Origin: a virus
Taxonomy: Duplodnaviria; Heunggongvirae; Uroviricota; Caudoviricetes
Strand: one strand, 5' to 3'
DNA length: 64,000 nt
Virus record (IMG/VR): IMGVR_UViG_2718217789_000006
A program made the translations under genes and the position numbers. Shown in pieces: positions 6,668 through 7,445 of this stretch. The notes beneath the pieces were generated by a model. It had not been told where the DNA came from. It searched no databases and was given only the letters and a program-made list of their open reading frames with translations. Position 1 is the stretch's first letter; every line of letters begins with the position of its first letter.

Positions 6668-7130
6668 TGTTTTGTTACGAAGGTGTTACTGGTAACGTTA
6701 AGGTAATTTAACAAAGAGTCAGTTCCGGACTTTATAGTGTGCTCAGTTCATGGCCAAAAACGATTTCTGTGATAAATATTTTGAATATTATTTACAGGTA
6801 AATGGAGTGGGGCACATGGATAGAAATATTACAATAGAGTATGAAGTATATGCCCGTATTGTATGGGCAGAGAAGGCAAAAACATGGTAATTCCGTGTGT
6901 TGCCATGATACCTGACTGGCAGAATTGTTGTTTGGTTTTGAGTATATAGTCAGCGTCTTTTGTTCGGTAATTGCTCTTTCAATTAAAATGCCAGATATGA
7001 TTTGCTTTTCTTTGTTGTTTAGTTTTTTTGTATATTATTTTTATTGTTTTTATATAATTAGTTTTTTATTGTTGTCTTATTAAGGACGGTAAATTCAGGA
7101 TGGCAGTCTGTAGATAAACGGAGGTTACTT

Positions 7131-7445
7131 ATGCTACATGATCACCTGGCAGAATGTCTGGAGAAAAAAGGACTGTACCGGAGAGCAGCTGAACGATGGG
7201 CAAAAGTGATGGTACAGCTAAGTGATGACCAGAAAAGAAAAGTGGCGGCACAGAAACGAGCAGAGTGTTTGCGTAAGGCGCGCCGGACTCCGGTTTCACC
7301 GGTGAACCTGACCGAAATAAAACAAGCGGTCAACAGACTACATTCTGAGTTGGGAATGGGATTTGAAGAGCGGCGGGTATTCCGACGATATAAAGGGACA
7401 GGAGAACAGAATACGTCCGGAAACGCGCGGTCAAAAAAATGCTAA
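7131..7445 (+). CDS. PerC-family (Pch-like) transcriptional activator candidate
   Basis: 104 aa; N-terminal …AECLEKKGLYRRAAERW… resembles the PerC/Pch signature; preceded by a very AT-rich block (6950..7110). Confidence 0.45.
   Translation: MLHDHLAECLEKKGLYRRAAERWAKVMVQLSDDQKRKVAAQKRAECLRKARRTPVSPVNLTEIKQAVNRLHSELGMGFEERRVFRRYKGTGEQNTSGNARSKKC

Follow-up and report, generated by a model that had tools for sequence, protein, structure and literature searches.

We analyzed a stretch of 64,000 nucleotides of Caudoviricetes DNA (IMG/VR record IMGVR_UViG_2718217789_000006, referred to below as the window) and focused on an open reading frame (ORF) of 104 codons located between the lysis gene Rz and the cohesive-end site cos. 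This gene is, with high confidence, pchB, a group 1 PerC homologue of enterohemorrhagic Escherichia coli (EHEC), carried by an Sp11-type prophage of an O157:H7 strain, and its product is a trans activator for LEE, the locus of enterocyte effacement. We favor this reading on the strength of the protein family match, the identity with the gene of strain Sakai, the synteny, the distribution of the locus and published experiments. No evidence contradicting the identification of pchB was encountered, and the weak points are limited to the inferred regulation of the gene. The identification itself leads to well known ground: publications already cover pchB and its paralogues, the target and a large part of the regulation, the gene is annotated in RefSeq, and it has been the subject of two decades of experimental study.

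Identity of the gene and its action on the LEE

The earlier note, made from the sequence alone, had proposed that an ORF of 104 amino acids with a PerC/Pch-like N-terminal signature lies at this site. The ORF is present on the plus strand with an ATG start (Table 1), and the family assignment was borne out. The Pfam model for PerC (PF06069) matched the protein over profile positions 1-89 of 90. The score was 148.8 bits (E 5.4e-44), the cut-off being 22.6. This full-length match is the reverse of the outcome that the note had named as decisive against its proposal, namely the lack of any significant PerC-family match. In an alignment of nine PerC sequences from E. coli, an E. albertii-like strain, Salmonella, Klebsiella and Pantoea, the residues A7, L10, E11, G14, R17, R18, A19, A20, R22, W23, R36, C46, G75 and R85 are invariant. 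PchB carries the whole PerC signature (A7, L10, E11, G14, Y16, R17, R18, A19, A20, R22, W23, C46, G75 and R85), the residues of which are at least 90% conserved across 114 diverse members of the family.

The predicted protein has a computed mass of 12.05 kDa and a computed pI of 10.3. It is 100% identical to PchB (ECs_2182) of prophage Sp11 in E. coli O157:H7 Sakai and 99% identical in amino acid sequence to PchA and PchC, from which it differs by one residue each (L6V in PchA and V58M in PchC). PerC of enteropathogenic E. coli (EPEC), encoded on pMAR2 by the coding sequence (CDS) that follows perA and perB, showed 47.1% identity over PchB residues 2-88 (tblastn, E 1e-17). The alignment that had been suggested as a check was thus carried out against PerC, PchA, PchB and PchC, and it agreed with the assignment (47% to PerC and 99-100% to the three Pch proteins). 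The coding sequences of pchA, pchB and pchC have been reported to differ solely at nucleotides 16, 172 and 183 (PMC5931665). These nucleotides are C, G and C at window positions 7146, 7302 and 7313, which identifies the pchB allele. When the group 1 pch loci of Sakai (pchA, pchB and pchC) were retrieved and aligned with window positions 6600-7600, this 1001-bp stretch differed from the Sakai pchB locus by a single base, at window position 6916. Positions 6668-7600 were found with 100% identity in complete O157:H7, O121 and O145 E. coli genomes, and the identical ORF is annotated in RefSeq as 'PerC family transcriptional regulator' (WP_001302717.1).

The PerC family is numerous and diverse, with 480 clusters of which many are plasmid-borne beside ssb, and its groups 2 and 3 serve other functions (PMC6265319, PMC7369912). 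From this diversity it could be argued that the gene has decayed or serves another function, as a PerC paralogue comparable to PchD, PchE or YfdN, and that the prophage has no role in LEE control. PchD, PchE and YfdN of K-12 (groups 2 and 3), which we compared by description only, are prophage-encoded PerC homologues like PchB (PMC6265319, PMC5931665). However, they show little or no activation of ler, unlike PchB, and PchE represses curli and flagella (PMC6265319, PMC7369912). In the window, the ORF, the Shine-Dalgarno (SD) sequence and the terminator are all intact, and the protein is 100% identical to the PchB that was tested directly. In that test PchB was the strongest activator of ler::lacZ among five Pch proteins (PMC5931665). 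The idea of a different or decayed paralogue is already refuted by this sequence identity, and we attach practically no weight to it.

Of 5426 complete E. coli genomes, 673 contained a pch locus; the median was three copies and the maximum five, almost always on the chromosome. In 520 of 688 records, the upstream region of the best copy was of the pchB type, with an identity of at least 99%. The ler gene together with the LEE1 promoter was detected, once each, in 697 of the 5426 genomes, and the similar totals (673 versus 697) fit the view that pch travels with the LEE. The LEE itself lies outside the window, and the whole window is found with 100% identity in O157:H7 genomes, for example that of strain 9000 (NZ_CP018252.2). 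Among 50,697 complete phage records none carried pch; two unannotated fragments with an O157 host matched. PerC-family genes were also observed directly downstream of ssb on conjugative and large plasmids of E. coli and Klebsiella (1..573 of two plasmid sequences). The position after ssb is that of leading-region establishment genes. It points to a possible function during the entry of the plasmid, perhaps in countering silencing by H-NS, that is unrelated to the LEE.

The possibility raised in the earlier note, that the prophage regulates virulence genes elsewhere in the chromosome, is supported by published experiments on the identical protein (PMC5931665, PMC4764244). PchA, PchB and PchC are required for full LEE expression and adherence, according to Iyoda & Watanabe 2004 as cited in PMC4456613 and PMC6265319. 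In strain MG1655 without its own PerC homologue, plasmid-borne PchB brought a ler::lacZ fusion on the chromosome from 1,577 up to 12,513 Miller units, about 8-fold (PMC5931665). Fukui et al. reported that Pch activates LEE1 only under silencing by H-NS along with StpA, Hha and YdgT, and that the activation is lost in an hns stpA background (PMC4764244). In the same study, Pch lowered H-NS occupancy both in vivo and in a reconstituted complex, and it potentiated Ler at other LEE promoters (PMC4764244). These published experiments, which were performed with identical or 99%-identical protein, describe the following steps. The small basic protein is made in the lysogen, and its target in trans is the LEE, a pathogenicity island at another chromosomal site. 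There it cuts the occupancy of LEE1 by H-NS, StpA and Hha, so that the LEE1 promoter and with it ler are turned on. Ler then switches on the remaining genes for type III secretion as well as many effector genes, with Pch also taking part as a co-activator.

Two known regulators are useful for comparison. PerC of EPEC E2348/69 (pMAR2, perABC) shares with PchB the Pfam family, the N-terminal motif and the LEE1/ler target (PMC4764244). It differs from PchB in that it is plasmid-borne, follows the gene of the AraC-type activator PerA within one operon, has 89 amino acids and is without the basic C-terminal tail. EPEC PerC is dispensable for LEE expression in many conditions, whereas the pch genes are essential in EHEC (PMC4764244). 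Ler, an H-NS paralogue encoded by the LEE, resembles Pch in its acquisition by horizontal transfer and in lifting the silencing that H-NS imposes on AT-rich virulence promoters (PMC4764244). Unlike Pch, it has an H-NS-type DNA-binding domain; the two proteins are unrelated, and Ler acts downstream of Pch.

Predicted structure of PchB and its similarity to the ANR family

An AlphaFold2 model of PchB built from 114 homologues was confident for residues 1-80 (mean pLDDT 82). It consists of five helices (residues 5-13, 16-29, 33-50, 60-73 and 78-84) and a disordered basic tail. No relative of PchB was found in the PDB by phmmer, and a Foldseek search with the model gave nothing significant (best E 3.3 in the PDB and 0.12 in a viral structure library). 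The PDB comparison revealed no helix-turn-helix or other DNA-binding fold, in agreement with the published remark that Pch is unlike known DNA-binding proteins.

The ANR family, which includes Aar of enteroaggregative E. coli and Rnr of EPEC, resembles PchB in that its members are small helical regulators of enteric pathogens that touch H-NS, Ler and the LEE. ANR proteins bind H-NS, Ler and AraC-type regulators (PMC5570504, PMC10148876). PchB is not a member of this family. The NCBIfam ANR model (NF033650) aligned to PchB residues 7-47 with 13.6 bits (E 0.046), short of its cut-off of 32 bits, and the mass of PchB exceeds the 4.4-9.5 kDa of the ANR proteins (PMC10148876). Of the 114 diverse members of the PerC family, 99 were matched by the same model at E<=0.1 and 25 at E<=1e-4 (best 2.5e-9), and one PerC-family cluster is named 'ANR family' by NCBI. 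Both hhalign and local hidden Markov models (HMMs) aligned the motif AE..G.Y..A..W...R...C, and EPEC Rnr was in register over it. An ANR protein could be superimposed on the PchB model at 0.6 A over 40 columns; helical hairpins, however, superimpose easily. The hhalign comparison of PerC with ANR was weak (probability 1.7%, E 0.03), and the PerC-ANR scores of the local HMMs were just 1-2 orders of magnitude over those of reversed-sequence controls. The ANR papers that we consulted contain no discussion of a link to PerC.

As a tentative lead and not as a finding, we suggest that the approximately 45 N-terminal residues of PerC/Pch (helices 1-3, with the pattern AE-LE-KG-YRRAA-RW...R...C) may be homologous to the core of Aar and Rnr. 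If this is true, activators and repressors of one virulence circuit share one interaction module, and Pch might displace H-NS via protein contacts, instead of or besides competition for DNA. It is also conceivable that Pch acts mainly by protein-protein contact like Aar and Rnr, with its N-terminal helical hairpin as an ANR-like module, and not by DNA competition. The NF033650 alignments, the shared motif, the superposition, the absence of a DNA-binding fold in the PDB comparison and the binding of ANR proteins to H-NS and Ler all speak for such a mode of action. However, the score of PchB below the ANR cut-off, the weak hhalign result with its small HMM margin and the ease with which hairpins superimpose speak against it. 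In addition, PchA co-precipitated with neither H-NS nor Ler, Pch was detected at many chromosomal sites by chromatin immunoprecipitation (PMC4764244), and ANR proteins repress the LEE whereas Pch activates it. Action mainly by contact is improbable in our judgment, and Pch is better regarded as the published antagonist of H-NS occupancy at LEE1.

The Rz-pch intergenic region and the control of pchB

The intergenic region between Rz and pchB is 463 bp long with 33% GC, and it is made up of two contrasting halves. We compared it among five pch copies, namely pchA, pchB, pchC, the copy of an O55:H7 strain and that of a divergent monkey isolate with a pch CDS that is 5.7% different. The 5' half (6668-6975) diverges by 2.9-5.5% among these copies, and across the divergent copies it is conserved as well as the pch CDS or better. 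As RNA it folds better than all 100 shuffled sequences (z -2.9). In 40 sampled genomes no RefSeq feature is annotated within it. An unannotated ORF of 46 codons (ORF46) is present in this half; it has no SD sequence, and the NCBI annotation pipeline PGAP calls it nowhere. The 11 variable columns of ORF46 are spread 4/4/3 over the codon positions, so that no coding signature is seen. A regulatory site, an RNA or the small protein encoded by ORF46 are all candidates for the conserved half.

The 3' half contains the AT-rich block that the earlier note had placed ahead of the ORF. The block is real, and only the length of about 200 bp given in that note was slightly generous, as the extreme part covers approximately 110-150 bp. 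The GC content of 100-bp segments within 6950-7099 is 0.20-0.26 versus 0.52 for the whole window, and the interval 6950-7099 belongs to the lowest 0.13% of segments by GC. Of all 150-bp segments in the 64 kb, 6921-7070 (GC 0.233) ranks second from the bottom; the single segment below it is situated among the NleG effector genes. The core (6980-7085) has 18.9% GC and 58% T on the plus (coding) strand. This T-rich block, which includes the internal direct repeats D1 and D4, is the one part that diverges strongly within a 1-kb repeat whose remainder is nearly identical. It is 29-41% different, with insertions and deletions, between pch copies, whereas the rest of the locus differs by 0.3-6% and the CDS by 0.3-5.7%. 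A 52-codon ORF running across the block (6925..7083) was rejected as non-coding, with stops interrupting it in all other copies.

A perfect -10 hexamer, TATAAT, was found within the block by a relaxed scan. Its -35-like partners are poor (TGTATA at 7029-7034 with an 18-nt spacer, and TTGTAT at 7028-7033 with a 19-nt spacer). The corresponding position reads GCGTGG in pchA and CTGTGA in pchC. PchA (ECs_1091, Sp4) and PchC (ECs_2737, Sp14) are like PchB proteins of 104 amino acids, encoded in the same Rz-pch-ylcI-cos slot with the terminator and the conserved 5' intergenic part. They differ from pchB in the T-rich block, which is about 30% different with insertions and deletions and is without the TATAAT. 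We infer that the block is the promoter region of pchB itself, with this hexamer as the candidate promoter element. Because the block differs from those of pchA and pchC, its divergence is probably the basis of copy-specific regulation of the pch genes. Given its composition, the block is also a plausible target of H-NS.

Several inputs to pch expression have been described. LrhA acts on pchA and pchB differentially, according to Honda 2009 as cited in PMC4456613 and PMC13012123. Butyrate acts via Lrp and LeuO (PMC4456613), and NtrC provides an input to the group 1 pch genes (PMC13012123). The small RNA DicF frees the SD sequence of pchA from an anti-SD sequence inside the CDS, as PMC7769764 and PMC7873438 describe the work of Melson & Kendall 2019. 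The pchB CDS differs from that of pchA at nucleotide 16 alone, so sites inside the CDS should be conserved; beside the SD sequence, the pchB leader differs from pchA and pchC at 7118 (A versus T) and 7126 (T versus C). RNAduplex predicted a pairing of Sakai DicF with pchB mRNA over 7163-7235 at -50.5 kcal/mol, and 1% of shuffled sequences did as well. Since this calculation ignores intramolecular structure, the predicted pairing is only suggestive. It was also observed that Sakai Sp4 has a DicF copy in addition to pchA (15733..15784 on the minus strand of the Sp4 sequence examined, 76.9 bits), which places the regulator and its reported target mRNA on one prophage.

A set of results weighs against the regulation inferred here. 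A strict sigma-70 scan detected no promoter upstream of pch. The minimum free energy fold of the pchB leader with the early CDS showed no unusual stability (z +0.16), and the published pairing of SD and anti-SD was not reproduced from folding energy alone. No copy of DicF was found in the window, including the region near dicB. Finally, the copy that is clearly SOS-induced is pchC and not pchB (pchB more than 3-fold, P = 0.09; PMC5931665).

Transcription from the late promoter of the phage has to be considered as well. Since pchB is oriented as the late operon and a terminator scan detected none between Rz and pch, pchB is probably also read through from the late promoter on prophage induction. 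The rise of group 1 pch transcripts after treatment with an SOS-inducing drug (PMC5931665) fits such read-through. These three observations, together with the absence of a strict sigma-70 match, would equally suit a pchB that has no promoter of its own and is a mere passenger of the late transcript, relevant only on induction, with the AT-rich block as a functionless spacer. However, Pch-dependent LEE expression occurs in ordinary uninduced cultures, and pchA and pchB answer to LrhA and to nutritional signals (PMC4456613, PMC13012123, PMC4764244). Moreover, the perfect TATAAT lies within the AT-rich block, and every copy retains the 463-bp intergenic region with its strongly conserved 5' half. 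A pure passenger role is thus very unlikely, and probable expression of pchB from its own candidate promoter region, with probable read-through on induction, is the reading that we retain.

The Rz-cos slot and the surrounding prophages

The location of the gene between Rz and cos, as stated in the earlier note, is literally true (Table 1). Rz is the final gene of the lysis cassette and the upstream boundary of the pchB locus, position 6668 being the first base past its stop codon. The lambda cosN sequence, which is followed by a lambda-like cosB sequence, bounds the locus downstream and puts pchB at the packaged genome's right end. The gene order is that of Sakai Sp11 (holin, YdfR, lysozyme, antirepressor, Rz/Rz1, pch, ylcI, cos, Nu1 and TerL), and the Sp11-like order continues with head and tail genes, Lom, tail fibers and three NleG effectors. 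The second gene of the slot, a ylcI/ynfO-family gene, is convergent with pchB and accompanies pch in all copies inspected. Between the two lies a terminator-like hairpin that is invariant in pchA, pchB and pchC and that the simple terminator scan missed. Flanked by an A-run and, on the opposite side, by a T-run, it could terminate both convergent genes.

Table 1. Coordinates of features in the 64,000-nt window
Feature	Position	Strand	Remarks
Conserved 5' part of Rz-pch intergenic region	6668..6975	+	presumed regulatory DNA
ORF46, 46 codons, unannotated	6750..6890	+	intact in 5/5 copies; matches phrog_2157, E 1e-37
T-rich, very AT-rich block	6976..7085	+	hypervariable promoter-proximal region of pchB
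Perfect -10 hexamer TATAAT	7053..7058	+	relaxed scan; candidate pchB-specific promoter
Shine-Dalgarno GGAGG	7120..7124	+	6 nt 5' of the pchB ATG; read from sequence
pchB CDS	7131..7445	+	ATG start, 104 amino acids plus stop; PerC-family activator of LEE1/ler
Terminator-like hairpin AAAAAGCGAC-7 nt-GTCGCTTTTT	7482..7508	.	perfect inverted repeat, 10-nt arms, 100% complementary
Rz spanin gene	6194..6667	+	Pfam Phage_lysis, E 1.3e-46; annotated 'lysis protein' in identical RefSeq records
Rz1 lipoprotein gene	6420..6605	+	embedded in Rz; from the ORF list
ylcI/ynfO-family gene (DUF3950)	7527..7751	-	Pfam DUF3950, E 1.8e-18; NCBIfam YlcI_YnfO_N, E 1.5e-8
cosN, 12-nt lambda cohesive-end sequence GGGCGGCGACCT	7951..7962	+	exact match, sole one in the window
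Nu1 small terminase	start 8138
Large terminase	start 8658
Two tandem lambdoid prophages	1..31900 and 32076..64000
Prophage tRNA genes	442..514, 618..691		first prophage; annotated tRNA-Ile and tRNA-Arg
Three NleG effector genes	about 29353-31494		end of first prophage (Sp11-type); plus DinI-like gene
Integrase of second prophage	32076..33371	-	adjoins the end of the Sp11-type prophage
Type II restriction-modification pair	42630..45511		second prophage; beside QueH homologue
hok/sok-type antitoxin RNA	43384..43564		second prophage; 61 bits, barely over gathering score
C5-cytosine methyltransferase	43495..44619		second prophage
NgoMIV-family endonuclease	about 44633..45511		second prophage
Additional DNA methyltransferase	48785..49843		second prophage

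Its position between phage modules and its own terminator-like hairpin mark pchB as cargo (a 'moron'), which occupies the slot that separates the lysis cassette from cos. The bor gene of phage lambda, which encodes a serum-resistance lipoprotein, is a moron in the same slot. Such morons resemble pchB as non-essential cargo between the lysis genes and cos, with their own terminator and AT-rich flanks, and as genes expressed from the prophage to the benefit of the host. Unlike bor, the cargo is here a transcription regulator that acts on a different mobile element.

A scan of positions 6500-8200 with Rfam found no known RNA family, and the only matches were chance-level ones to eukaryotic miRNA and snoRNA families. 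An inverted repeat with 25-nt arms (88% complementary) and a 5-nt loop was observed at 8059..8113, within the cosB-Nu1 interval and directly upstream of the Nu1 start, and it also gave rise to spurious miRNA matches. Full-length matches to Rfam STnc100 are present at 1464..1636 and 49923..50123 (104.7 and 148.1 bits), both downstream of antiterminator/tRNA regions, one per prophage. A third STnc100 copy, weak and sub-threshold, lies at 36547..36765 on the minus strand, directly upstream of dicB, at the position that dicF occupies in K-12 Qin.

The window differs from Sakai in a few points. The corresponding end of Sakai Sp11 adjoins a ydfJ pseudogene, whereas in the window the second lambdoid prophage is found there instead. 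A further difference from Sakai Sp11 is the intact tail-fiber gene of the prophage in the window. A NanS-p-like esterase gene of the first prophage (DUF6645/SASA family, 1773..3623) has an internal stop that splits it into ORFs at 1773..2153 and 2157..3623. It is recorded as a pseudogene by PGAP in the identical strain 9000 record; in Sakai (ECs_2189) and strain LSU61 it is unbroken. No stx genes were found.

For the PerC family, which is structurally uncharacterized, the weak but systematic similarity between PerC and ANR proteins suggests a testable idea on the mode of action, and this is the only mildly new point of the analysis. The known differential regulation of pchA and pchB could have its basis in the hypervariable, copy-specific T-rich promoter block, which offers a concrete candidate. 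As to the gene itself, pchB is one of the master switches of EHEC virulence. Its product, encoded by a prophage, turns on a pathogenicity island at a different place in the genome, and the pair serves as a textbook example of how mobile elements can regulate one another.

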